Assembly: GCF_009805595.3 (NCBI RefSeq)
Contig: NZ_VMQO03000001.1
Coordinates: 55,911 to 87,910, forward strand
Direction: 5' to 3'
DNA length: 32,000 bases
DNA from: Candidatus Tremblayella phenacoccinincola
GTDB taxonomy: Bacteria; Pseudomonadota; Gammaproteobacteria; Burkholderiales; Burkholderiaceae
The notes beneath the pieces are model-generated. The model was not told the DNA's origin. It was given only the letters and a program-made list of their open reading frames with translations, and made no database searches. Below, piece after piece: positions 921 through 32,000 of the stretch. How positions within the stretch are numbered: the first letter of the stretch is position 1; every line of letters starts with the position of its first letter. Both the position numbers and the translations under genes were made by a program.

Positions 921-985
921 CTCTCACAACTCATATCAAAGAATGTTAAGGTCACTCTAACTAACTTTTAAATAGAGGGGGCAGC

Positions 986-1558
986 ATAAACATAACCATA
1001 AACATAACCATAAGCATAACTTCAACTAAACGAATTAATGGTGAAGCCTCAAACCCCAAAGTAAGAATAATTGGACTAAACAAAGAACTATTAGGAACTA
1101 TGAATTTAGAAGAAGCCTTAAGCATATCCAAAAGCTTAAAAACAGATCTTATTGAGACATCACCTAACAGCTTTCCTCCAGCTTGCTGCCTAATGGATCA
1201 CGGTAAGTTCAAATATAGATCTTCAAAGAAAAAACAAAAAGATAAGGCTAAGCAAAAGACCATGCAAACAAAAGAAGTTAAACTTACTCCTAATATTGGC
1301 AAGAAGGACTACAGAATTAAAATGCGTCAGTTAGTCAGTTTCTTAGAGAAAGGAAACAAAGTTAAGGTCATTGTTAAATTCAAAGGACGAGAGATATGCT
1401 TTAAAAACATGGGCTTTGAGATTCTCAAAGAAGTCCAAACCGATCTTTCAGGCCTCTGTACAGTTGAACACTCTAAAAGAAAGGAAGACAAATGCATATC
1501 AATGTTCCTAACAACATTAAAACAAAGAAAGCCTAAACAACAAAAGTGGAATGCATAA
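986..1558 (+). CDS. infC: translation initiation factor IF-3, non-canonical (AUA/AUU) start
   Basis: Listed ORF 1100-1558 matches the IF3 linker and C-domain (DLIETSPNSFPPACCLMDHGKFKY, KFKGRE). The same frame is open upstream to TAA 962-964. It encodes the conserved N-domain (KRINGEASNPKVRIIG, compare E. coli NRINGEIRAQEVRLTG). There is no ATG/GTG/TTG before 1100. ATA at 986 follows GAGGGGG (975-981). The exact start is uncertain (986-1034). Confidence 0.82.
   Translation: MNITINITISITSTKRINGEASNPKVRIIGLNKELLGTMNLEEALSISKSLKTDLIETSPNSFPPACCLMDHGKFKYRSSKKKQKDKAKQKTMQTKEVKLTPNIGKKDYRIKMRQLVSFLEKGNKVKVIVKFKGREICFKNMGFEILKEVQTDLSGLCTVEHSKRKEDKCISMFLTTLKQRKPKQQKWNA
996..1052 (+). repeat. repeat A copy 1 (57 bp, identical to 29613-29669, direct)
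   Basis: Read by eye: ccataaacataaccataagcataacttcaactaaacgaattaatggtgaagcctcaa occurs at both sites. It overlaps the infC 5' coding end. Confidence 0.9.
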
Positions 1559-2567: not shown

Positions 2568-2650
2568 TAAGAGCATAAGTCCCTTCTAAACCTATAACAA
2601 TCCCCCCCCCCTTCTCTAACAGCTAACACCTAAAAAGGAAAAGAGCTAGA

Positions 2651-4795: not shown

Positions 4796-4837
4796 TTCTC
4801 TCTTCTCTATTCTCTATTCTCTATTCTCTATTCTCTT
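4796..4837. repeat. 7-bp microsatellite (ttctcta), about 6 units with degenerate ends
   Basis: Read directly at 4796-4837 in the convergent gltX/ileS spacer. Confidence 0.85.
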
Positions 4838-10235: not shown

Positions 10236-10304
10236 GGTTTCCCCCCCCTCCCCCAAAAAGAATAGTTTATTTAGCAGCTAATATATATGTTGGAATAATG
10301 GTTT

Positions 10305-13389: not shown

Positions 13390-13422
13390 TTGGGGGGGGG
13401 AGGGGAGGAGCTGTTAGTTTAA

Positions 13423-17936: not shown

Positions 17937-18037
17937 TTGTTAAGATATTAGGTTAACATACTTCCTATCTGTAGCATAGCTAATAAAACTCCGTCTTTTA
18001 TTGGTTGTTCTTCTATAGGTATTCTCAGTCTAAGCAA

Positions 18038-18102
18038 GCCAGTAGTAAAAGCCAGTAGTAAAAGCCAGTAGTAAAAGCCAGTAGTAAAAGCCAGTAGTAA
18101 CA
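18038..18102. repeat. 13-bp tandem array, 5 units (gccagtagtaaaa x4 plus gccagtagtaaca)
   Basis: Read directly. It lies in the divergent trpE/thrB spacer. Confidence 0.95.
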
Positions 18103-19229: not shown

Positions 19230-19240
19230 TATTGATGGCT

Positions 19241-19285
19241 TTTAGTGCTTTTAGTGCTTTTAGTGCTTTTAGTGCTTTTAGGTCT
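19241..19285. repeat. 9-bp tandem array, 5 units (tttagtgct x4 plus tttaggtct)
   Basis: Read directly, starting 12 nt after the thrB stop. Confidence 0.95.
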
Positions 19286-19435
19286 TTGGAGGGGGAATAG
19301 AAGTAGCTAATGGGTTCTACTCCAACTTCAACTGCTTTTCCTTAGCCTATAGAGACATAATAGACTATAGATACAATTCCAATATAGAATGCCTTTTCAA
19401 ACTACAATGAACTGCTGTTAGTGCTAAAACCTGTC

Positions 19436-19497
19436 TGTATACGAGAGGGGAGAGAGAAGCTCTTTAATAGCTATAGCTGTTAACTCTCTCCTCTCCT
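19436..19497 (+). repeat. repeat B copy 1 (at least 62 bp, identical to 31939-32000, direct); GA-arm/CT-arm hairpin
   Basis: tgtatacgagaggggagagagaagctctttaatagctatagctgttaactctctcctctcct occurs at both sites. 19443-19454 pairs with 19484-19495 (12 bp, one G:T). The loop contains the palindrome agctatagct (19469-19478). Confidence 0.9.
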
Positions 19498-20931
19498 ACC
19501 TTCTCCTAATAAACCAACCTTTAGAACCATAACTTGTTTAACGTGTGCAACACAAGGAAACATGAACCTCAACCTTCGAACACGCCTTTGTGTTAAGAAA
19601 CTGTATCGACTACCAATCATAGTTCGAAGTGAGTCTTTTAGCTTTAAAGCCTGGGCTGTCTCCAGAATAACCTTAACTTCCCTTATGGACTTGCTATGCT
19701 TTAACAGCAGGACAGTCTTTGCGCCATTGGCAGAATGGGTATCAAGCAGTAGTCCGCATCTTTTGAATAGATATTGAACTATCATTTGCCGTTCTGAACC
19801 AAACGTACTTTCAGCTGAAATGCCTAACCTCTTTATGGATCTGTAGCTAATGTACCTAAGTAACCTTACTAACCCAAAGTGATGTAATTGTTGAAATACT
19901 TTGAACACTATGTTTGAATTCCTATTTAAAACCTCTAAGAGTAAGCGTTCAAGGTTTGAAGCTTTTGATATGTCCATGCTTGGAGTGTTAGTAGCTAGCA
20001 GGCTGCTAGCATTTCTTACTTGGTAAGAACCAGCTTTGAAAAACTCTTCCAGTACGTTATTCTCGTTTGTCGCAATAATGATTCTTCTTATTGGTAAACC
20101 CATAGTTCTTGAAATGAAACCTGCAAAAGCATTTCCAAAGTTTCCAGATGGAATAAGATATGTTGTGTACTCTTTTGGAGCAATGGTTACTCGATAGTAA
20201 GAAATGAAATAATACGCAGTTTGGAAAAGCAAGCGAGCCCAATTTATAGAGTTGGCTGTTCCGTTGTTACTTCGCTCCCTACATAACAAGCGTTTAACAA
20301 TATCCTGACAGCAATCAAACTTACCGTTGATGCATATGTTAAATGCTTTCTTCGATAGGTGGCTGTACATCTGTTCTGCTTGATATTCGGAAATGCCTTT
20401 AAGTGGTGAGAAAACGAAAAGCCTTGAACGCTTGCAAAACTGAAAAGCTGTGCACGCCGAACTACCAGTGTCTCCAGAGGTGGCGCTAATAATGTTAACG
20501 TTGCTGTTACTACTGCCAACCATAAACTCAAAGAACGCACACAATAACTGCATGGCAATATCTTTGAATGAGAGAGAAGAACCATTAGATAACCGAAGTA
20601 TGTATATTGGAACGTTAGAGATTGGTGCAACCCCGACTGGACAAGAAGCTGAATGTCTGTTGTAGTAGCTTAAGGGAAACCTTTCGTTGTATACGGTCCT
20701 TACTAGCTTTCTTATAACTGAATACGGTACGTCACTGATGAACCATCTAAATATTCTAAAAGCCAACTCTTGGTATGTAAAGAACCTCCATAGACGCTCT
20801 TCAATATGCAAGCTTGAGTAAGAGGTTGGCACATATAAACCACCATCGCTAGCCAATCCCTTTAACAATACATTTAAGAAAGAACGTAACCTTTCTTCTT
20901 TGTTGGAACCTCTCGTCGAATGATATAGCAT
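19480..20931 (-). CDS. thrC: threonine synthase
   Basis: MLYHSTRGS...FLNVLLKGLASDGGLYVP matches the ThrC N-terminus, with PLP region SFKDIAMQ and SGDTGSS. I place the start at the ATG at 20931. The listed 20979 start is a TTG extension overlapping hom. The last ~6 codons and the stop lie in repeat B. Confidence 0.9.
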   Translation of the reverse strand: MLYHSTRGSNKEERLRSFLNVLLKGLASDGGLYVPTSYSSLHIEERLWRFFTYQELAFRIFRWFISDVPYSVIRKLVRTVYNERFPLSYYNRHSASCPVGVAPISNVPIYILRLSNGSSLSFKDIAMQLLCAFFEFMVGSSNSNVNIISATSGDTGSSACTAFQFCKRSRLFVFSPLKGISEYQAEQMYSHLSKKAFNICINGKFDCCQDIVKRLLCRERSNNGTANSINWARLLFQTAYYFISYYRVTIAPKEYTTYLIPSGNFGNAFAGFISRTMGLPIRRIIIATNENNVLEEFFKAGSYQVRNASSLLATNTPSMDISKASNLERLLLEVLNRNSNIVFKVFQQLHHFGLVRLLRYISYRSIKRLGISAESTFGSERQMIVQYLFKRCGLLLDTHSANGAKTVLLLKHSKSIREVKVILETAQALKLKDSLRTMIGSRYSFLTQRRVRRLRFMFPCVAHVKQVMVLKVGLLGEGRRGES

Positions 20932-20932
20932 T

Positions 20933-22153
20933 CTATAATAGTGTTCTATAGTTTGTGATGTAACCTCTGAAAGAGACAACAGTACGTTTGAAGTTTCTTT
21001 CGAAAACGTTTTTCAAGACCATAATAACTTCTAAACGTTTATACACTCCAAAAGCACTAAAAGATATTAAGTTAAGCTTTCTCTTTAAAAGAATGTTCAG
21101 AGTTTCTTTGCATTCTTGGAATGATGTATTTAAAGTACGAACATAGAAACCGTTTCTTGAAGTTGAAATGGATCTGTATGGGAGAGTTAAGATTCTTGTT
21201 GGATAAGAGGAATTCCCGTTCCCATAGCGAATAGATTCAACGTCTGAAATGATAGCTGAAGCTGTTGGCTTTGTGCCAGCTCCTTTACCAAATAACCACA
21301 ACTTACCAACACAGTCTCCAGCCACAAGTATAACATTAGTTGTGTCCTCAGAGATCCAGAAAGGCCAGCTAAGTGAAACAAAGCCTGGGAATGTGGCACA
21401 CAGAGCCTTCTTTATGGTTAAAACAACAGACATCAGTTTAAAGTTTAAGCCTAGTCTTTTACCATATGCAATATCCTGAAGGTTTACGTTTCTTATGCCT
21501 TCAGTATATATGTAACGAATAGTTACGGTTGTTCTTAAAGAAATGTAATATAGAATTCCTGTTTTCTGTGTCGAGTCTATCCCATCAATATCGCATACAT
21601 TGTCTGACTCAGCATAGCCTCTTTGAGATGCATCCAATAAAGCTCTTTTTAAAGAAACACCCAACCTATGCATTTGCGCTAAAGTCCAGTTGGAAGTGCC
21701 ATTCAAAACACCTGCCACATAGCTAATCATGTTTCCAACAAGCCCTTTCTCAAGAACACTTAGGATTGGAATGCCTCCTGCCACTGATGCTTCAAGCAAT
21801 ATGTTATTGTAGGTGTGTCTTAGTTCAAAGTTGTAACAGGCAATTAACGTTTTATTGGCTGTTACTAAAAACCTTTTTTTGTTTAAAGAATTGAACAATA
21901 TATATCGAGCAACACATGAACCTCCAACAGCTTCAACCAGTACATACATTCGGGGTTCATTTAGTGGAATCTTTTGCGTTGAGTTAACATTGATCTTTGT
22001 AGCTTTAGTTATTCTTCTGGTTAATATAACGGCTATTCTAAGATCTAAACCTAACCTGTTTCTGATTATGACACTATTCTTGTACATAGTTGACATAACT
22101 CCCCTCCCAACCGTTCCTAGTCCAAACAAGCATATGCAAGAAACCTTAGTCAT
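20933..22153 (-). CDS. hom: homoserine dehydrogenase (monofunctional)
   Basis: VSCICLFGLGTVGRGV (NAD fold) and NGTSNW. It is followed, after a 1-nt gap, by thrC. The ATG at 22153 is preferred over the TTG at 22162. Confidence 0.88.
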   Translation of the reverse strand: MTKVSCICLFGLGTVGRGVMSTMYKNSVIIRNRLGLDLRIAVILTRRITKATKINVNSTQKIPLNEPRMYVLVEAVGGSCVARYILFNSLNKKRFLVTANKTLIACYNFELRHTYNNILLEASVAGGIPILSVLEKGLVGNMISYVAGVLNGTSNWTLAQMHRLGVSLKRALLDASQRGYAESDNVCDIDGIDSTQKTGILYYISLRTTVTIRYIYTEGIRNVNLQDIAYGKRLGLNFKLMSVVLTIKKALCATFPGFVSLSWPFWISEDTTNVILVAGDCVGKLWLFGKGAGTKPTASAIISDVESIRYGNGNSSYPTRILTLPYRSISTSRNGFYVRTLNTSFQECKETLNILLKRKLNLISFSAFGVYKRLEVIMVLKNVFERNFKRTVVSFRGYITNYRTLL

Positions 22154-22339
22154 GTTCCTCAATGTCTAACTAGACGAATGTGCGGTTGTTATTGAATCTG
22201 TGGTTAAATAATGAATTCAATAGTGATCTCAGCCACAGCTAAACTATTGGGGTTTGTTCGAGATAACCCGTTCTACTTCTTTTGTCTTCTATACATTCCA
22301 TATTATCCCGGCTTTTGTGGATTCTCTTCTAACTGGTTG

Positions 22340-22753
22340 CTATGGTTGTCTAAGAATCTTGATGCATACATTGACTGCAACGTGGTTAGTTATTGTTATT
22401 TTAACGAAGTGTTCACCTAGTCTCCTAAATACGGTAGGCATGTAGAGTTGATCTCTCCAAACGTAAACATTAAACTTCCTTAATAGAAAAAGAACGTCAG
22501 TTTCTTTAACGGACTCAAACAGTTCACCATTATCTTTAGCTGTTCTCATATAAAGTAAGTAAGATGGAAATCTGTAGGGTTGGTCAATAAGAAACATGTG
22601 GTCGATATCTTTATTCGGACTTATTACTTGTATATTGAAAGGTGTTGTATATTTGTGAGGTAACAGAAGGTTTCTAGCATAACCGTTTTTAACGTACACA
22701 ACGGCTCCTATGACTCCAAGATTTCTTAGGTTTTCTAGTAGGATTACTTTCAT
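22340..22753 (-). CDS. rplI: 50S ribosomal protein L9
   Basis: [32 protein letters not shown] matches the L9 N-domain. ATGA overlap with rpsR. Confidence 0.88.
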
Positions 22754-23037
22754 TGGTTTCTATTCGGTTCTTTGTTTATTAAATGCAAGCTGGTGTAGGG
22801 AAGTAATGAAAGAAACCTTGCTCGTTTGATTGCAGTACTTAACTGCCTTTGGAACCGAGTCTCAGTACCTGTTAGTCTTGAAGGAGTGATTTTACCGAAG
22901 CTAGTGACGAAAGCTCTTAGAGTTTTAATGTCTTTGTAGTCTATATGTTTGAATTTGGAACAGGTGAAGTAGCAAGCTTTCTTCTTTAATGTTACCCCGT
23001 TCTTAACATTGGTTGTGGGTTTAGGTTGCTTTTTCAT
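22750..23037 (-). CDS. rpsR: 30S ribosomal protein S18
   Basis: [48 protein letters not shown]. Confidence 0.9.
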
Positions 23038-23387
23038 TCTTTTTGCTCTTGTGAAAGGTTATCGTTTTCTATGGACTTTATAAACGCTGACTTGCAGGTT
23101 GGTTTGTATTTACGCTTCACAATAAGATACCTTAATAACATACGACAATGTTTGAGTTTAGTGGTTAGCTTAGCTAAAGAATCACAAGAGCATTCGATGT
23201 TCATACAGTAAAAATAAGCTGTGGAGTTGTTTTTAATGGCATAAGAAAGGTTTTGTTTGCCCCAACATTCATACCGATGCACCAAACCACCTACAGAAAG
23301 AACAGTTCCACTCAACTCTCTGAAAAAAGAAACCGACTCCTTATTGTTTACTGCGTCCATTAGATATACTATTTCGTAATGACTCAC
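23034..23387 (-). CDS. rpsF: 30S ribosomal protein S6
   Basis: [10 protein letters not shown]...[16 protein letters not shown] compares with E. coli MRHYEIVFMV...IHRLEDWGRRQLAYPI. Confidence 0.9.
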
Positions 23388-23596
23388 TTTGATATACGCT
23401 CTTCCAGTTGTTAATTGAGGTTTAGATATTGATGGGGGGCTTTTTAAGGGGAACCTACTATAGCATAACCGAACGTTCTGCTTTTAGCTTTGAATCATTT
23501 TGGTTTATAACAGCTTTAATTGGTTCCCCTCCCATACAAACCCAACGATGTTCCTAGCTAATATTCTTTACCAACTATTCCTAACTGAGTTCTTCA

Positions 23597-24670
23597 TTAG
23601 AAACCCAACGTTAGCTTTATAGGATCTTCTAAAGATTCTTTAACTGTTCTTAAGAAAGAAACAGCATCTTTGCCATCTATCAATCTGTGGTCGTAGGATA
23701 ATGCTAAATATATCATAGGTTTAACTTCTACTTTATCGAACAAAACAATGGGACGCTGCTCAATTGAATGAATTCCTAATATTGAAGATTGAGGTGGGTT
23801 TATTACTGGTGTTGATAACAAAGATCCAAATATGCCTCCGTTAGAAACTGTGAACGTGCCTCCACTTAGCTCTTCAATAGTAATCCTGTTGTGCATTGCT
23901 TTTGTCATAAAGTTAGAGATATTCTTTTCAATTGTATGTATGCTCATTCTTTCAGCGTTTCTTAGAGTTGGAACAATTAACCCAAGTGGGGAATTTATAG
24001 CTATACCGATATCTTGAAACTCATGATACACTATAGAATCGTCTTTGACTGAAGCATTCAGGATAGGATATTTCTTCAGTGCAATTGAGGAAGCTTTTAC
24101 GAAAAAGCTGGTTAAACCTAACTTAACGCCATGCTTTTTGGTAAACTCAACCTTGTACTTTTCTCGAAGCTTAATGACTGAACTCATATTTACTTCATTG
24201 AAAGTGGTAAGAGTTACACTTGCTTTTTGAGCTCGAAGTAACCGTTGGATTAAGCTCTTTCGTAATACAGACAAAGCTACGTATCTTTCTATTCTGTGGT
24301 TTCTTGTCTGATTGCAAAAGGAAGTATGAGTTGCTTTTGTATTTAAGCTAAGGTTGTTTGTATTTCTCAGTCTTTCGGTAGTTCGCATATAGGTGTCAGA
24401 AGAGGTTGGTTTAGCAGAAAAGCTTTTAGTTTCTATTACTGCCAGAGTTTGACCACTGTGCACTACTTCTTTTTCAGGAACCTTAATTATCTTAATCAGT
24501 CCATTAACTTCAGAAGGAACATCTAAAACAACTTTGTCTGTCTCCAACTCAAGCAGGCTATCTCCCTTCTTAACATATTGTCCTTCATGCTTTCTCCATT
24601 TTAGAACAACAGCTTCTGATACAGACTCTGCAAACTGTGGAGCTTTAACTTCAATCTCGGTAGTATCCAT
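23597..24670 (-). CDS. sucB: 2-oxoglutarate dehydrogenase E2 (dihydrolipoyl succinyltransferase)
   Basis: A single lipoyl domain ([15 protein letters not shown]) and catalytic SYDHRLIDG. Confidence 0.92.
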
Positions 24671-27212
24671 ATTTATCCCTCTTTAACCGAATGTTGAAAG
24701 CATTGCTAGTAACGAAGTGACTTTGAAACCTGAACTCAACATCAAATCCTAATGCGGTTGAAGCAGAGCTTTGAACACCACAATAAACAACTCTATTCTT
24801 AACCACGTAGCGAATATATGGTTCAATGAAATACCATATTCCCTGATTCTTAGGTTCATCTTGTACACTCAAAACCTCACAGATTGATATGTATTGTTTT
24901 GGTATACAATGCTTAGGAAATGGATACAGCTGCTCCAGCCTGATAATAGAGATCCTGTTAATACTAAACCTGTGTTGATAGGCTGCTAGTTGGAAATAGA
25001 TCTTCCCTGAACATAACAGCAGTCTCCTTAAGTGTTCATACCTTACATTGTACTTCTCCTCCACAATAGTCTTCCTAAACCTATTAGCTGTGAAGTCAGA
25101 GATGGTAGACCAAGAAGCCTTAAGTCTAAGTAAGGACTTAGGGGTTAATATTGTTAATGGTCTTTTAACTTTCCTTGACGTCTGTTCAAGAATGACATGA
25201 AATAGCTGCGCAGAAGTGGTAGGATGTACAACCGTAATATTATTGCTTGAGCATAGTTGCAAAAGCCTCTCAAGTCTTGCAGATGAGTGCTCTGAACCCT
25301 GACCTTCCTGACCATGCGGAAGATATAACACTATGTTTGAACTCTGACCCCACTTAGAACCACCAGAAGCAATAAACTGATCAAGCAGGACCTGCGCACA
25401 GTTGATAAAATCTCCGAACTGCGCTTCCCAGATCACCATCGCATAAGACTTAACCAATGAATAACCGTACTCAAAACCTAGAACTGAGCCTTCGGACAGT
25501 GGAGTATTTATAATATGTATTCTACCTTGAAGTGACGATATGTTTTGTAAAGGAGTATAAGCTGGAATACCTTGAAAACTCTGATTATAAACTACTGCAT
25601 TTCTGTGCATAAAGGTTCCTCTTGAAACATCTTGGCCTGATAACCTTATTGGAATTCCTTTGTTTAAGACTAAAGCATAAGCTAAATGTTCACTGGAATT
25701 CCAGTCTAGAGAAGCGCTTGTTTCTATTACCAGGTGTCTGTTTAAGAAGCTACGTTTTAAGAGTGGATGGAGACTAAACAATTGAGGAAGCCTAACTAAC
25801 TTACCTAGCAACCATTTAAGTTCTTCTGTTAAAGCTATACAATTGCTGTTAACTCTGATGCTTTTGAAGATATGTATTTTTCTTATGCGTGGTTGCACTG
25901 GCTTTTGGGTTTCTAAAGAGACTAGGTAATGCTTTCTTACTTTTAAAAAGGTTTCGGTTGTGGCTGGTTCCTCGTTTGATATGAACTGTAGGTAAGTCAG
26001 GTTGATGGGCTTGTGTGCTTTTATAGAACTGTACATAAGAGGTTGTGTTATTTCTGGAGTGTCTTGTTCATTGTGACCCAACCTCCTAAATGCAATGATA
26101 TCTAAGACTACGCTTTTTAGAAACTTCATTCTAAACATTAGCGCAAGCTTTGAAATAAGAACCACAGAGTCTGGGTTGTTTCCATTCACATGAAATACCG
26201 GCGCTCCTATTGTTTTGAGATGTTCGGTGCAAAAGGTAGTAGAACGAGTTTCTTTAGGTTGAGCCGTAAATCCTATTTGATTGTTAATGACTATATGAAT
26301 TGACCCATATGTTCTGTATTGTTTAATGCCTGAAAAGTTTATAGCTTCGGACACAACTCCTTGTCCTGTTATTGCCGCATCTCCATGTATCTGAATTGGA
26401 AGGACATATTCATTCTTTTTCTTAGGTGTGTTTATAGTATTTAGTTTAGCTTTTGAGATGCCTTCAACTATTGGGTTAACTGATTCTAGGTGTGAAGGGT
26501 TATAGACCATTGTTAGCTTTAAACTATTCTTATGGACCATACGGGACACACAGCCAAAGTGATATTTAACATCAAAGCTTTGAATATAGTCTTCTTTGTG
26601 TTGAAGCGAATGTACAAAGAATCTGTTTGTTGCTTCGTGATATAGGTTAATTAATATGTTAAGTCTTCCCCGATGTGCCATACCAACTACGATATCTGTA
26701 ATCTTCGACTTGGACGCAAGGCTTATTAGGGAGCTTAATAGGACAACAACAACCTCGGAGCCTTCAATAGAAAACCTCTTCTGACCTACATACGTCTTAG
26801 CAAGGAGATTCTCCAGTTCATATGCTTTCGTTAGAATAAATAAGATACTTTTCTTTACGTCTAGGTTCAAGCTTAATCTATTCAGTACGGGTCTTTCTAA
26901 AGTGCGGTGTATCCACAAGCGTTTAATGCTATTTATATGAGAAACTTCAGGATATATTCCATGGCAATAAGAGCTTCTCAGAAAACCTAAAGCTAACACA
27001 TTTGGAAACAAGTCTTTGCTGTTTAATGGTTCTAAGTTCCTAAGTGTGTTATTGAAGCCTCTGTACAGCTCTATTGTTCTGTTAGCGTTATACATTTTGG
27101 AAACGTCTGAGAAATAGATATTCCAACAGCCAGAGAGCGAATGTGGGTTATTAGTATATTTACGATACAGTAACTCAATGTATTTTATATTTTCAATGGA
27201 AGAGTCGGTCAT
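24651..27212 (-). CDS. sucA: 2-oxoglutarate dehydrogenase E1
   Basis: [46 protein letters not shown] and WEAQFGDF. Its 3' end overlaps the sucB start by 20 nt. Confidence 0.92.
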
Positions 27213-27290
27213 TAAGTTAAGCTGGGTTTATTAGATGCGTATGGTTGAAACGTGAACTTGCGATACAAGCTCGCATAGGCTTATGAGTCT

Positions 27291-27620
27291 TTAATGGGGG
27301 GGGGGAGTTGTTTTAACAAGCTCTTCGGTTGGTATAAAAGTGAGCTTTGGGGTATCTTTTAGGTTTACTCTTGCATACAGTGTTCTACATATTGTTTTGG
27401 AATAAAGAGCTAGTATTCTTGCTACGTTGCTTTTATTACCAAATAAACTAGAGAAGCTAACAATAAGTCTTTTACGGTCTTTGGATAAGATTATTCTCTG
27501 TGCAGTTATAATATTGTCCCTTAATTCTTCGGTGTGTGTTAGGATATTTAATAACTCGTACTTTAGCCTGCTAATGCTTCTTTTGTAAGAGTGAGCCCTC
27601 TTTTTATGTTCAAATGTCAT
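27291..27620 (-). CDS. rbfA: ribosome-binding factor A
   Basis: It sits immediately after infB. The RbfA-like pattern is present (R..R....L..EL..IL......D...........S.D...A.V.....TP.L.F). The C-terminus runs into a C10 tract (TTPPPH*). Confidence 0.82.
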   Translation of the reverse strand: MTFEHKKRAHSYKRSISRLKYELLNILTHTEELRDNIITAQRIILSKDRKRLIVSFSSLFGNKSNVARILALYSKTICRTLYARVNLKDTPKLTFIPTEELVKTTPPPH

Positions 27621-27631
27621 CAGAAACTAAG

Positions 27632-29149
27632 CTAAAAGAAAACCTCAAGCATGTCACCAACATATAGTTCTTGTAGGGTTTTTAGCACTACCAAAACTCC
27701 GCACTCAGAACCCCTCTTAACTTCTTCTACTGGAGTTTTAAAAAGTTTTAAAGTACGAACCTCGCATATTCCAACTTCCTTACCGTTTCTTGAAACTATG
27801 GTGCTTTTCGATCTTTTCAAAACACCAGCTTCTACTATGCAACCTAAAATTGCTTCGTTGCCTGAAACATTAAAGACTCGCTTAACTGTTGCTTTTGCTT
27901 GTGGTTTGTCCCTGCTTTCAGGCTTTGATTGAAAACCAACAGACCGTAAGTCTTCTGCTAGCTCATACACAGTTCGAAAGCTTTTAATAATAACTTTGCG
28001 TTCTTTGGATAGCTTTAGGATTCTGGAATTAGGTTTTATTCCTAATGTGATGATAACTGCTCCAGATATGGCAGCCATCCCTATGTCACTTTCGTACACT
28101 AAACCTACGCTTTTGTGGATCACTTTTGCTGGTATGTTGTTTGGTATGTTGTTAATGGTATTAACAGCAGCTTCAATCATTCCATAAGTCCTTGACTTAA
28201 CGATGTAGCGAAAGCTGTTATTGTCAGTGGTTCTTAACATATCGAACATGGTTTTTATGTTAACACACTCAGGCTCTTCAGGTTTATTATTCAATATGCA
28301 TTTGCGCTGTGTTGCAAGGTCTTTGGCAGCTTGTTCTGTTGGCACTACTATGAACTTAGCACCTGGTTTAGACGGAGTAGGTAAGCCGTAAATGTTAGCC
28401 GGTGTAGCTAGTGACACTCTTTCTATACGTTTGTTATGTTCATCGTATGCTAGTCTAACTCTACCGTAGTCACTGTTAAGTAAAACTATGTCTCCGAGGT
28501 TAAGAGAACCAGCCTGAACTAATATAGTTGTGCATATGCCCATAGTTGGAGTTACTACTGAATTAATAACTGTTCCTCTTGCTGGTATATTAACTAGTGT
28601 CTTTAGCTTATGTGAAAGCTTTGTTCTTTTGGCTTCTACATGGATTGAAGTCATCAGGTTTGGCACACCTATTCCCTTCTTGGCTGATAAATACACCAAC
28701 TTCGAGCCATCAGCGTTTAGTTTAGACTTGCTGTCAAGGCTTGAGAATATGTTTTTAACATTGGGTCTTTTGTCTATCTTATTAATTCCTAATACAACTG
28801 GTTTTCCAATAGCTTTAACGTTGGTTAATATCTTTTTGCATTCTTCAGTAACACCATCATCTATCGCAATTAGAATAACTACAATATCTGCTAGTTTTAC
28901 CCCATAGTTTCTAGTCAGTTCAAATGTTACGTGGCCTGGAGTATCAACAAATATTAGTTTTCCAATTGGAGGTGTGATGGAGCTGTATGCGAAGATATCT
29001 TGTGTTATTCCTCCAGCTTCGTAGTTAGAAGAATCAGCATTCCTTATACGTTCTATAAGTGTAGTCTTTCCATGATCTACGTGACCTACAATAGCAACAA
29101 CCAAGGCTCTTTTACCTATTCTGTTTATGCTTTCGTTTATGTTCTCCAT
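27632..29149 (-). CDS. infB: translation initiation factor IF-2, minimal form (G domain to C2 only)
   Basis: VVAIVGHVDHGKTTLIERIR, GGITQDI, VDTPGH and NKIDK. At 505 aa the long N-terminal region of enteric IF2 is absent. Confidence 0.92.
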   Translation of the reverse strand: MENINESINRIGKRALVVAIVGHVDHGKTTLIERIRNADSSNYEAGGITQDIFAYSSITPPIGKLIFVDTPGHVTFELTRNYGVKLADIVVILIAIDDGVTEECKKILTNVKAIGKPVVLGINKIDKRPNVKNIFSSLDSKSKLNADGSKLVYLSAKKGIGVPNLMTSIHVEAKRTKLSHKLKTLVNIPARGTVINSVVTPTMGICTTILVQAGSLNLGDIVLLNSDYGRVRLAYDEHNKRIERVSLATPANIYGLPTPSKPGAKFIVVPTEQAAKDLATQRKCILNNKPEEPECVNIKTMFDMLRTTDNNSFRYIVKSRTYGMIEAAVNTINNIPNNIPAKVIHKSVGLVYESDIGMAAISGAVIITLGIKPNSRILKLSKERKVIIKSFRTVYELAEDLRSVGFQSKPESRDKPQAKATVKRVFNVSGNEAILGCIVEAGVLKRSKSTIVSRNGKEVGICEVRTLKLFKTPVEEVKRGSECGVLVVLKTLQELYVGDMLEVFF

Positions 29150-29288
29150 TAGCTTGAGTAGGTTTCTTAAAATGACAGGTGTTAAGAACTATATTAGTAA
29201 ATGCTCAGCTTCTTAAGAGACAATATGCAAGCTGTTTGAGGGTTCTGCCAAGATGTGGAGAGGGTGTGTGTGAAGAGGAGGAGGAGCT

Positions 29289-29310
29289 GGAAGGTAAAGC
29301 TAGGAAGGGG
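29289..29310. repeat. inverted-repeat core, left arm (ggaaggtaaagctaggaagggg)
   Basis: 21/22 match to the reverse complement of 29812-29833. It is embedded in a C-poor GA/GT-rich tract, about 29240-29520. Confidence 0.7.
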
Positions 29311-29612
29311 TTTGAGAGGAGGAAGAGTGTTTAGGTTTGTCTCTGTGTTGATGAAGAAGAAGGTTGATGATGGTGGAAGAGAAGGAGGGTGTGAGGGAGT
29401 TGGAAATAAATGTGTGTGAAAGACTGGGAGTGTGTGAGAGAAGAGGAGAATGAGAGAGGAGAATGGTAGGAGAAGAAGATGGGTATAGAAGATGGGTATA
29501 GAAGAAGAGAGATATAATAGGAAGCTCTTTCCCCAACAGGTGGTATGTCCATGCCTATAGCTGCACGCATTAGAACCTAGAACTACCAGGTATTTCATAG
29601 TGAAGACAACAG

Positions 29613-29669
29613 CCATAAACATAACCATAAGCATAACTTCAACTAAACGAATTAATGGTGAAGCCTCAA
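29613..29669 (+). repeat. repeat A copy 2 (57 bp, a duplicate of the infC 5' coding end, no gene attached)
   Basis: 57/57 identity to 996-1052. It has 2 rather than 3 copies of the 12-bp unit. It diverges immediately after ...gaagcctcaa. Confidence 0.9.
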
Positions 29670-29811
29670 TCAAAACCTTCCCCTTCTCTCCCTCCCCCCA
29701 AAACCTATAACAAGTCCTTCCTTTCCTTTCCTTTCCTTTCTACCTCTTTACTACTCTTCCTTTTCCCCCCAGGCTTCCCCCTCAACACATCCAATACATT
29801 TTACCTTCTTT

Positions 29812-29833
29812 CCCCTTCCTACCTTTACCTTCC
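29812..29833. repeat. inverted-repeat core, right arm (ccccttcctacctttaccttcc)
   Basis: Reverse complement ggaaggtaaaggtaggaagggg, compared with 29289-29310. It is embedded in a G-poor CT-rich tract, about 29670-29850. Confidence 0.7.
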
Positions 29834-29971
29834 CCCCCAATAGCACCACCAAATACCTTCAACACAACCCTGCGTTAAAAGTATAAACTAATATCAATAA
29901 CCCTCAGCTTTTCCCACAAAGCCAACCAATGTACAACCTCTTAGTTCGTTAACTCAGCTGGTAGACCCACT

Positions 29972-31147
29972 ATGAAACCAACCTTTAAGCTTAGACTACC
30001 GGTGTATCTGGATTATAACTCTACTACGCCAGCTGATTCTAGAGTGGTGGACAAAATGCTACCATTCCTCAGACACAAGTTTGGCAACCCAGCCTCACGT
30101 TCACATATCTTAGGCTGGGAGGCTGAAGCTGCTGTAGAAAAAGCTAGAGAGTTCGTTGCTAGTTTAATCAAAGCTTCCAGTAAAGAAATTGTATGGACCT
30201 CAGGTGCAACTGAATCTAATAACTTAGCAATTAAAACCATCGCTCTTTCAAACCTTAACAAAGGAAGACATGTTATTACTCTAAAAACTGAACACAAAGC
30301 CGTCCTTGACACCTGTAGATACTTGGAATCAAAAGGCTTCATTGTTTCCTATTTAGCAGTTAACAACAATGGTTTGTTAGACCTAAACCTACTGAACAAA
30401 TGCATACAGCCTGATACCATCCTTGTAGTCATAATGTATGTTAACCATGAAATAGGGGTAATTCAGAATATAGAAAGCATAAGTAGCTTATGTTCAAGCT
30501 ATGGAATTCCGCTTCATGTTGATGCAGCGCAAGCAGTTGGTAAAGTATCAATAAATACCTCCAAGACTCAGATCAACACCATGTCTTTAACATCTCACAA
30601 AGCCTATGGACCCAAAGGAGTAGGGGCTTTGTATGTTAACAAGGCTAATGTATTTAAGATTGAACCTCAGATGCATGGTGGTGGTCAAGAGAAAGGCGTA
30701 CGTTCTGGAACTCTTCCAACACATCAAATAGTAGGAATGGGTGAAGCGTATCGGTTGATATACAACGAAGGCTTATCAGAGTTTAAGACCACAAAGCAGC
30801 TAAATGTTCATTTGGTTAAGGAATTAGTATCTATTGTTCAAGTAAACGTTAACGGAAGTTTAACATCTCGAATTCCACACAATATCAACATTAACATAAA
30901 GTATGTAGAAGGAGAAGCATTGATGATGTCGATGAAGAATGTTTGTGTTTCTTCAGGCTCTGCATGTACTTCTTCAGCTTTACAACCCTCATACATATTG
31001 CAAGCGATAGGCTGTATTCAAAACGTCCACAACTCTATTAGGTTCTCTCTAGGACGTTTCACTTTAGCTTCTGAGGTTGAATATGTGTCACAGGCTGTTA
31101 TAGAAAAGATTAAAAGATTAAGACAGCTTTCACCACTTTGGAGTTAA
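29972..31147 (+). CDS. iscS: cysteine desulfurase IscS
   Basis: LPVYLDYNSTTP, FGNPASRSH, TSGATESNNLAIK, SHKAYGPKG (PLP Lys) and SSGSACTS (active Cys). Confidence 0.93.
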   Translation: MKPTFKLRLPVYLDYNSTTPADSRVVDKMLPFLRHKFGNPASRSHILGWEAEAAVEKAREFVASLIKASSKEIVWTSGATESNNLAIKTIALSNLNKGRHVITLKTEHKAVLDTCRYLESKGFIVSYLAVNNNGLLDLNLLNKCIQPDTILVVIMYVNHEIGVIQNIESISSLCSSYGIPLHVDAAQAVGKVSINTSKTQINTMSLTSHKAYGPKGVGALYVNKANVFKIEPQMHGGGQEKGVRSGTLPTHQIVGMGEAYRLIYNEGLSEFKTTKQLNVHLVKELVSIVQVNVNGSLTSRIPHNININIKYVEGEALMMSMKNVCVSSGSACTSSALQPSYILQAIGCIQNVHNSIRFSLGRFTLASEVEYVSQAVIEKIKRLRQLSPLWS

Positions 31148-31877: not shown

Positions 31878-31938
31878 CTGTTAAAGGTTAGTTGAGTAGT
31901 TTATTAGGGTTTTATTATTATTATTTGGATGATATGTG

Positions 31939-32000
31939 TGTATACGAGAGGGGAGAGAGAAGCTCTTTAATAGCTATAGCTGTTAACTCTCTCCTCTCCT
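31939..32000 (+). repeat. repeat B copy 2 (runs into window edge)
   Basis: 62/62 identity to 19436-19497, starting 61 nt after the iscA stop. Confidence 0.9.

Follow-up and report, generated by a model that had tools for sequence, protein, structure and literature searches.

The closest precedent for the locus described here is Portiera aleyrodidarum (Bemisia tabaci, Aleurolobini). In the Portiera of Bemisia tabaci, expanded intergenic spacers containing microsatellites are tied to replication infidelity (PMC7821994). Within the genus studied here, duplications have been described as well: Tremblaya phenacola PAVE carries an identical 386-bp inverted duplication, and T. princeps contains a duplicated rRNA region (PMC4479817). 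The genome of T. phenacola PSOL, the symbiont of Phenacoccus solenopsis, was assembled as 221.1 kb in seven contigs with a G + C content of 34.8%, and repetitive sequences were found at the contig flanks (PMC11014885).

The sequence analysed here is a stretch of 32 kb (32,000 nucleotides), referred to as the window. Its gene complement is highly reduced and comprises aroC, infC, rpmI and rplT (positions 60-2122), thrB, thrC, hom, sucB, sucA, rbfA and infB, and iscS, iscU and iscA. The products of infB, iscS and infC (IF3) matched GenBank entries for Candidatus Tremblaya phenacola (KAH0998330, KAH0998365; locus tag FKM95) with 100% identity. At 35.3%, the G + C content of the window agrees with the 34.8% of PSOL, which is the probable strain. 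Exact-protein look-ups with infB, iscS, iscU, iscA, rbfA and P0001 showed no independent copies of the locus on record.

The divergent genes infB and iscS are separated by 822 bp (29150-29971, Table 1). The initial annotation, made from the sequence alone, had described about 820 bp without a credible gene at this position, and this was borne out. A Pfam search with the six ORFs of the spacer gave nothing below E = 0.1; the sole match listed was noise (E = 0.16, 12 bits versus a cut-off of 23.8 bits), and all six ORFs were of low complexity. The description of the surrounding genome as tightly packed was only partly correct, since the window is 87.8% genic and has eight further spacers of 177-365 bp. 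Even so, the infB-iscS spacer is more than twice as long as the next-largest spacer of the window.

The locus resembles Portiera in several respects: a tiny obligate insect-symbiont genome, lineage-specific enlargement of a spacer, perfect short tandem repeats, ectopic duplicates and a rearranged gene order. As in Portiera, compact versions of the T. phenacola junction are present in relatives. For Portiera, a link to loss of dnaQ and to structural polymorphism was shown (PMC7821994). Paired, mirrored C-free and G-free arms, which are present here, are not known as a feature of Portiera spacers. The locus shares with the duplications of PAVE and T. princeps the genus, inverted repeats in a very small genome and places of perfect identity (here repeats A and B). 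Those duplications, however, contain recognisable genes and are identical throughout, whereas the inverted repeats of the spacer comprise 50-60 gapped nucleotides and the remainder is of low complexity. The perfect identity of repeat A and of repeat B suggests recent copying or conversion.

Table 1. Features of the infB-iscS spacer and related repeats (positions in the window)
Feature	Position	Strand	Remarks
Repeat A1	996-1052	plus	source copy in functional infC; hexamer repeat and N-terminus conserved in PPER and third lineage
Repeat B, two copies	19432-19497 and 31935-32000		
infB	27632-29149	minus	left neighbour of the spacer
infB-proximal block	29150-29215	minus	conserved in window, PPER and third lineage; promoter-like match
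Linker, unconserved	29216-29260	none	between infB-proximal block and left inverted repeat; no alignable counterpart in PPER or third lineage
C-poor G/A/T arm (purine arm)	29250-29526	plus	G ~44%, C ~2%; short direct and tandem repeats
Left inverted repeat	29261-29310	plus	outer end of purine-rich arm; contains core 29289-29310
Tandem array (TRF)	29412-29448		purine arm; 18 nt x 2.1
Tandem array (TRF)	29474-29505		purine arm; 13 nt x 2.5, 100% identical
Central segment	29527-29612	none	ordinary composition
Repeat A2	29613-29669	plus	exact 57-nt copy of infC codons 4-22; left edge in (CATAAC)n hexamer repeat
62-aa ORF, hypothetical protein FKM95_000086 (KAH0998364.1)	29655-29843	plus	GenBank annotation, exact look-up
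G-poor C/T/A arm (pyrimidine arm)	29661-29873	plus	(TTCCT)4.6 at 29718-29740; pyrimidine runs of 24 and 27 nt
Tandem array TTCCT (TRF)	29718-29740		pyrimidine arm; x 4.6, 100% identical
Right inverted repeat	29812-29871	minus	outer end of pyrimidine-rich arm; contains core 29812-29833
iscS-proximal block (iscS leader)	29906-29971	plus	conserved with PPER, partly with third lineage
iscS	29972-31147	plus	right neighbour of the spacer

The composition of the spacer is strongly asymmetric. On the plus strand the left arm is free of C in three runs (29301-29340, 29344-29423 and 29425-29524) and the right arm is free of G in three others (29664-29713, 29715-29771 and 29774-29842). The GC skew, calculated over 100 nt, rises to +0.96 and then falls to -0.88, confirming the purine-rich, C-poor arm and the pyrimidine-rich, G-poor arm noted before. 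No tract of comparable length to the arms was found elsewhere in the 32 kb. When read in the sense of the gene that it faces, each arm is devoid of G. The gene leaders of the window have the same polarity in a milder form (upstream GC skew -0.13 versus +0.04 for coding sequence), and the polarity of both arms could be due to mutation or selection acting in one direction, for which a neutral model gives no explanation.

Homology between the arms was assessed by setting the purine arm against the reverse-complemented pyrimidine arm, using dinucleotide-preserving shuffles of each arm as controls. The inverted core reported initially, in which 21 of the 22 positions of 29289-29310 agree with the reverse complement of 29812-29833, is present and exceeds chance: depending on the scoring scheme, it was reached by 13 of 500 or by none of 300 shuffles. 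None of 1000 shuffles equalled the outer 108 nt of the arms, which were examined post hoc, and outside the core the flank gave a significant result by itself (8/1000). The alignment of 29261-29310 to the reverse complement of 29812-29871 consists of 44 matching positions, 4 mismatches and 14 gap columns; gaps interrupt the inverted repeats, and where bases are aligned their identity is only ~90%. The sequence of this outer repeat is AGGGTKGTGTKGAAG, and TGTGTTGA is common to both arms. The flank inside the core was not significant (296/1000 shuffles), nor were lenient local alignments of the whole arms (193/300 and 56/300). The k-mers common to both arms were not significant either (p ~0.09-0.2) and dropped to expectation when the core was masked. 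It is only in the outer 50-60 nt of each arm that the inverted homology is significant. The proposal that the arms are diverged copies of an inverted duplication therefore holds for their outer ends, which beat the shuffled controls, and is not supported for the rest of the arms, which stayed at chance. A third copy of the 22-nt core was absent from the window, and no second occurrence of the core or the outer repeat was found in the 32-kb window or in six related loci. Neither the 22-nt core nor relatives of infB turned up in scans of metagenomes.

Inside the arms, direct repetition is the dominant feature. Repeated 7-, 8- and 10-mers exceeded the dinucleotide shuffles within each arm (0/500 in every case), and Tandem Repeats Finder (TRF) recovered the 13-nt and 5-nt micro-repeats pointed out in the initial annotation, both with 100% identity. 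With its TRF arrays, its k-mer excess and its 57-nt copy of infC, the spacer is built of repeats in the manner of Portiera. Since further spacers of the window also contain perfect tandem arrays (18036-18100 and 19238-19281, with another array at 4796-4836 of 97% identity), slippage is active across the genome. The density of tandem arrays in the window is about twice that in the PPER loci.

The spacer had been compared to a giant hairpin, prone to cruciform extrusion and related to the hairpin of repeat B. The predicted fold of 29226-29870 contained 139 arm-arm pairs at -187 kcal/mol; arm-wise shuffles, however, folded to -192.7 +/- 7.8 kcal/mol with 139.8 pairs. Because the shuffles match both the fold energy and the number of pairs, the predicted pairing of the arms is a matter of composition only, which argues against a specific hairpin. 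Extrusion of a cruciform from duplex DNA is unlikely with gapped arms ~500 bp apart. Concerning repeat B, GAAGCTCTTT is indeed located at the end of the purine arm (29521-29530), but this string and CCTACCTT, both shared by the spacer and repeat B, are expected at chance (p = 0.21 and p = 0.29, respectively). Composition suffices to explain them, and the proposed kinship is not supported; one of the four comparisons between an arm and repeat B gave p = 0.009.

The suggestion that the region is prone to H-DNA holds, as a predicted potential, for short sub-tracts. As in known H-DNA mirror repeats, pyrimidine stretches of 24-27 nt and a mirror repeat, (CCTTT)n, are situated between divergent promoters, a setting in which negative supercoiling would promote a triplex. 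The mirror repeat, at 29718-29740, has arms of 10 nt consisting of pure pyrimidine and conforms to the H-DNA motif. Unlike H-DNA repeats, the arms of the spacer are C-free or G-free and only ~77% purine or pyrimidine overall, not homopurine or homopyrimidine, and it is only the short tracts, the runs of 24 and 27 nt and the mirror repeat, that are predicted to be capable of forming a triplex. No G-quadruplex motifs were found in the spacer.

Between the arms lies a fragment of infC, as had been recognised at the outset. This repeat A2 is identical to A1 over all 57 nt, has the same orientation and is located 28.6 kb away; its reading frame is shown by translation. At its left edge A2 begins within the hexamer array, which is shorter by one 12-nt unit than at A1, and at its right edge it ends after GCCTCAA. 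An alignment by MAFFT had hinted that the homology reaches into the flanks, but shuffle tests showed that the flanks of A1 and A2 are unrelated, and this extension was rejected. In all three lineages compared (see below), the 5' end of infC consists of a Shine-Dalgarno-like sequence GAGGRGG followed by an ATA-rich hexamer repeat (CATAAC/CATAAG). The hexamers encode repeats of the type I-N-I-T, preceding the conserved motif KRINGE...VR. By analogy with the known autoregulation of infC, the true start codon is probably the non-canonical ATA at 986. A1 thus covers codons 4-22 of a functional gene, and A2 is the secondary copy. The infC genes of the PPER and third lineages differ from A2 at many positions; because A2 is nevertheless identical to A1 of its own lineage, the patch is recent.

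Comparison of the region upstream of infB with that of relatives showed which parts of the spacer are shared. Contig 15 of T. phenacola PPER (L001), with an infB that is 74% identical, has the order iscA-iscU-iscS / infB-rbfA-sucA and a spacer of ~310 bp. In a third lineage, represented by two Logan assemblies (L002 and L003), infB is 72% identical, the spacer is ~175 bp and iscS looks degraded. As in Portiera, the spacer of the window is thus enlarged (822 bp versus ~310 and ~175 bp), with a polarity that is not strictly fixed by the comparison, since the two compact spacers belong to sister lineages (infB 84% identical to each other) and the window lineage is the outgroup (72-74%). For the same reason, gain of the interior in the window lineage and its loss in the common ancestor of the relatives would be equally parsimonious. 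Judged from the alignments, the perfect repeats and A2 are the only parts that are demonstrably recent.

A three-way alignment showed conservation of only ~65 nt on the infB side and ~65-85 nt on the iscS side, and these two gene-proximal blocks are probably the working parts of the intergenic region. The interior of ~690 nt, including both arms, has no counterpart in PPER or the third lineage, while the interiors of those two are homologous to each other (0/500 shuffles). We also considered whether the central segment might be a relic of the ancestral spacer. This was rejected, as it has no significant similarity to the spacers of PPER or the third lineage, nor to sequences elsewhere in the window or the loci.

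The block next to infB contains the minus-strand sigma70-like site predicted in the initial annotation (TTAAGA-17-TATAGT, 29216-29188), and is probably the infB promoter with its 5' leader. The block next to iscS carries a motif that resembles a tRNA D-arm. As regards a possible junction of beta- and gamma-derived DNA at the spacer, the iscS gene is clearly of the betaproteobacterial type.

In a distant Tremblaya-like genome (L007; 41-44% protein identity, 45.5% G + C), pheS, pheT, a rimP remnant, infB and rbfA are contiguous without gaps. In the window, PPER and the third lineage, by contrast, a divergent iscS adjoins infB. Since the rimP remnant and infB are contiguous in the distant genome, the iscS/infB junction is an old rearrangement breakpoint, common to the three chimeric-type lineages. 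Such a breakpoint explains why rimP and nusA are absent upstream of infB, and supports the earlier idea of a rearrangement junction in the evolutionary sense.

Taking these results together, and with moderate confidence, we regard the spacer as non-coding, lineage-specific filler that has grown by slippage and template switching at an old breakpoint in a T. phenacola genome, probably that of strain PSOL. In a first step a short purine-rich seed would have been copied in inverted orientation, probably by template switching; its remains would be the outer inverted repeats of 50-60 nt. Each copy may then have grown inwards independently through slippage and local tandem duplication. The composition of the seed, C-free on the left and G-free on the right, would have been kept because slippage only re-copies motifs that already exist. 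Finally, the 57-nt patch from the 5' end of infC may have been added recently, through ectopic copying or gene conversion or through template switching, anchored in the (CATAAC)n microsatellite. Useless DNA is usually deleted in reduced symbiont genomes. The G + C content of the spacer (42-50%) is higher than that of its flanks and of the window on average (35.3%), and a GC-rich interior of ~690 nt is somewhat unexpected and left unexplained by a neutral account.

Imperfect inverted repeats at the edges of a lineage-specific interior are also what a decayed non-autonomous mobile element would leave, either MITE-like or the remnant of an IS from the gammaproteobacterial partner, inserted in an ancestral spacer of ~200 bp and with the 50-60-nt repeats as its termini. 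Chimeric T. phenacola lineages do carry Sodalis-allied DNA (PMC5664097). When 29261-29871 (~610 bp) is removed, ~210 bp is left, a length intermediate between those of the relatives (175 and 310 bp). Like MITE and REP-type elements, the interior is a non-coding intergenic insert bounded by inverted repeats. Unlike such elements, it lacks a target-site duplication (the flanks ...GATGTGGAG and GCGTTAAAA... are unrelated), it is present as a single copy in 32 kb without a family consensus, and its interior consists of local microsatellites. Moreover, no second core or outer repeat was present in the window or the six related loci, no ORF resembled a transposase, and the reconstructed empty site aligned no better with the relatives across the junction. 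Active mobile DNA is normally absent from tiny symbiont genomes, which also counts against such an element. We consider an origin by insertion unlikely.

An active module of recombination or non-B-DNA, in which the inverted repeats flip the centre, A1 and A2 loop out a circle and the tracts form break-prone H-DNA, is improbable to a similar degree. Several features fit it: A1 and A2 are perfect over 57 nt and directly oriented, the inverted repeats flank the centre, in PPER the (CATAAN)n repeat is oriented the other way with respect to infB, and the spacer contains mirror repeats as well as pyrimidine runs of 24-27 nt. In addition, the PSOL and PPER assemblies are broken at repeats, and the copies of repeat B bound a block equal to PPER contig 15. 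However, the inverted repeats are gapped and imperfect, and all recombination genes are reported missing in T. phenacola PAVE (PMC4479817). The hexamer array of PPER, (CATAAN)5 upstream of infB and in the opposite orientation, looks, in comparison with the third lineage, like GCATATAC expanded in situ, and was not accepted as evidence of inversion. In its most far-reaching form, the locus would be a live module of a multipartite or isomerising genome, in which the inverted repeats flip the centre, so that the copy of the infC leader comes to lie upstream of either iscS or infB, and sub-genomic circles arise through A1/A2 and repeat B. Such a module would account for the failure of the PSOL and PPER assemblies to close, but its probability is lower again.

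A functional role of the arms is equally doubtful. Transcription outwards from the centre could provide long, G-free, CU-rich and unstructured leaders (for instance for S1-dependent initiation independent of a Shine-Dalgarno sequence), or the arms could act as RNA. The G-free sense strand of both arms with respect to the adjacent gene agrees with this, as do the leaders of the genome, which are mildly G-depleted and mostly without a Shine-Dalgarno sequence, and the retention of S1 in relatives. On the other hand, the conserved promoter-like block adjoins infB and is downstream of the arm, the relatives do without arms, and no promoter-like site was found in the centre. Searches of the spacer revealed no tRNA or tmRNA, and with the Rfam limit relaxed to E = 10 no family was recognised, matches being obtained only at E > 3. 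The centre folded no better than shuffles (z-scores +0.51 and -1.54). With Pfam, Rfam, tRNA, DnaA and the structure of the centre all negative, and a hairpin energy equal to that of shuffles, the spacer gave no sign of function.

An assembly artefact, i.e. a consensus of chimeric or fold-back reads in a low-complexity region, is very unlikely. The published assembly is fragmented with repeats at its contig flanks, and the exact-protein look-ups found no independent assembly of the strain. The flanks are syntenic with two relatives, though, so the join is genuine; fold-back reads give near-perfect palindromes, whereas the arms are unrelated outside 50-60 nt; and the GenBank annotation of the same contig has an ORF inside an arm.

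The least credible reading is that of a replication origin or terminus, as suggested initially from the skew switch: the gene strand does switch (19480-29149 all minus, 29972 onward plus) and the GC skew changes sign sharply, but G-rich followed by C-rich is the sign of a terminus while divergent genes suggest an origin, the switch is purely local and fades in the flanking genes without an extremum of the cumulative skew at the spacer within the 32-kb window, the DnaA box TTATCCACA is absent from 29150-29971 with up to 1 mismatch, the G + C content exceeds that of the flanks without an AT-rich unwinding element, and the relatives have no arms.

If the spacer is indeed filler produced by replication errors, it would be a compact example of non-coding growth in a 221-kb symbiont genome despite deletion bias. 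Repeats A and B are candidate causes of the fragmentation of T. phenacola assemblies. The site would be of wider interest only if inversion or excision were active there.

A practical consequence concerns the 62-aa ORF annotated in GenBank as FKM95_000086. It lies wholly in the G-free arm, encodes a low-complexity sequence of P, S, L and F, and has no Pfam match and no homologue. Because a G-free strand permits only TAA stop codons, this annotated gene is most likely spurious.

A 150-aa RimP remnant that abuts infB is retained in a distant Tremblaya-like genome (L007; ENA metagenome, 45.5% GC, 41-44% protein identity). The genes aroC-thrS-infC-rplT-pheST-rimP'-infB-rbfA form an uninterrupted run there, and it is plausible that this order is the ancestral arrangement, joining the infC and infB neighbourhoods. 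The IF2 encoded in the window is without its entire N-terminal region; the match to TIGR00487 starts at model position 81 and scores below the model cut-off. The shortened IF2 is common to the related T. phenacola PPER and its sister, the third lineage.

The start codon of infC is apparently a non-canonical ATA (window position 986), which is preceded by a Shine-Dalgarno-like GAGGGGG. The gene opens with an in-frame hexamer repeat, (ATA-ACC/AAC)n, encoding INITINITISIT and kept across three lineages. In the GenBank annotation infC begins at the ATG at 1100 (152 aa), a model that probably cuts off part of the IF3 N-terminus.

Coordinates of the features described (L002 and L003, third lineage; L004, PPER contig 8)
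Feature	Location	Remarks
infC 5' region	window 965-1100; L004 8780-8890; L005 4950-5050	non-canonical start and hexamer repeat
GA/GT-rich tract and pyrimidine tract	L004 1-240 and 343-633	PPER contig 8
RimP remnant and infB neighbourhood	L007 5548-7497	distant Tremblaya-like genome
infB (IF2)	window 27632-29149	505 aa
Repeat B, two copies	window 19432-19497 (B1) and 31935-32000 (B2)	direct orientation, 66 nt each
iscS 5' part with deletion	L003 1-265; L002 1-210	third lineage
D-arm-like motif GTTAACTCAGCTGGTAGACCC	window 29945-29968	directly 5' of iscS start codon
Tandem array, 13 nt x5	window 18036-18100	intergenic spacer
Tandem array, 9 nt x4.9	window 19238-19281	intergenic spacer
Tandem array, 7 nt x5.9	window 4796-4836	intergenic spacer
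Near-homopolymer G or C tracts	window 13392-13410, 10238-10254, 2601-2617	gene boundaries

The two copies of repeat B, a hairpin with a GA arm and a CT arm, are 98% identical and lie 12.5 kb apart. The block they enclose (thrC...infB, iscSUA) is exactly the entire PPER contig 15 (12,272 bp), and the pair may represent recombination repeats or the reason for contig breaks. B1 is located between the convergent genes thrB and thrC, a placement like that of a bidirectional terminator.

Within that block, the motif before iscS looks like a tRNA D-arm (TAGCTCAGCTGGTAGAGC), and its conservation extends to PPER and the third lineage. Neither ARAGORN nor Rfam gave a call at this site, which could be regulatory or what remains of a tRNA. 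Compared with PPER, iscS of the third lineage (runs SRR17390676 and SRR24008595) has lost approximately 100 nt from its 5' part, and each of the two contigs stops within the gene; decay of iscS may be under way in this lineage.

PPER contig 8 starts with a GA/GT-rich, C-poor tract of approximately 110 nt, followed some 90 nt on by a (CCCTCCT)3 pyrimidine tract, the pair adjoining a tmRNA gene. These tracts resemble, on a smaller scale, the C-poor and G-poor arms of the infB-iscS spacer, and this style of arm pair may be common to several T. phenacola lineages.

Perfect or near-perfect tandem arrays in spacers other than infB-iscS indicate that replication slippage is active genome-wide. Near-homopolymer G or C tracts (e.g. 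GGGGGGGGGAGGGGAGGAG) were also observed at gene borders in this genome of 35% GC; the tract at window 2574-2633 has a counterpart by position in PPER (L004 10279-10356).
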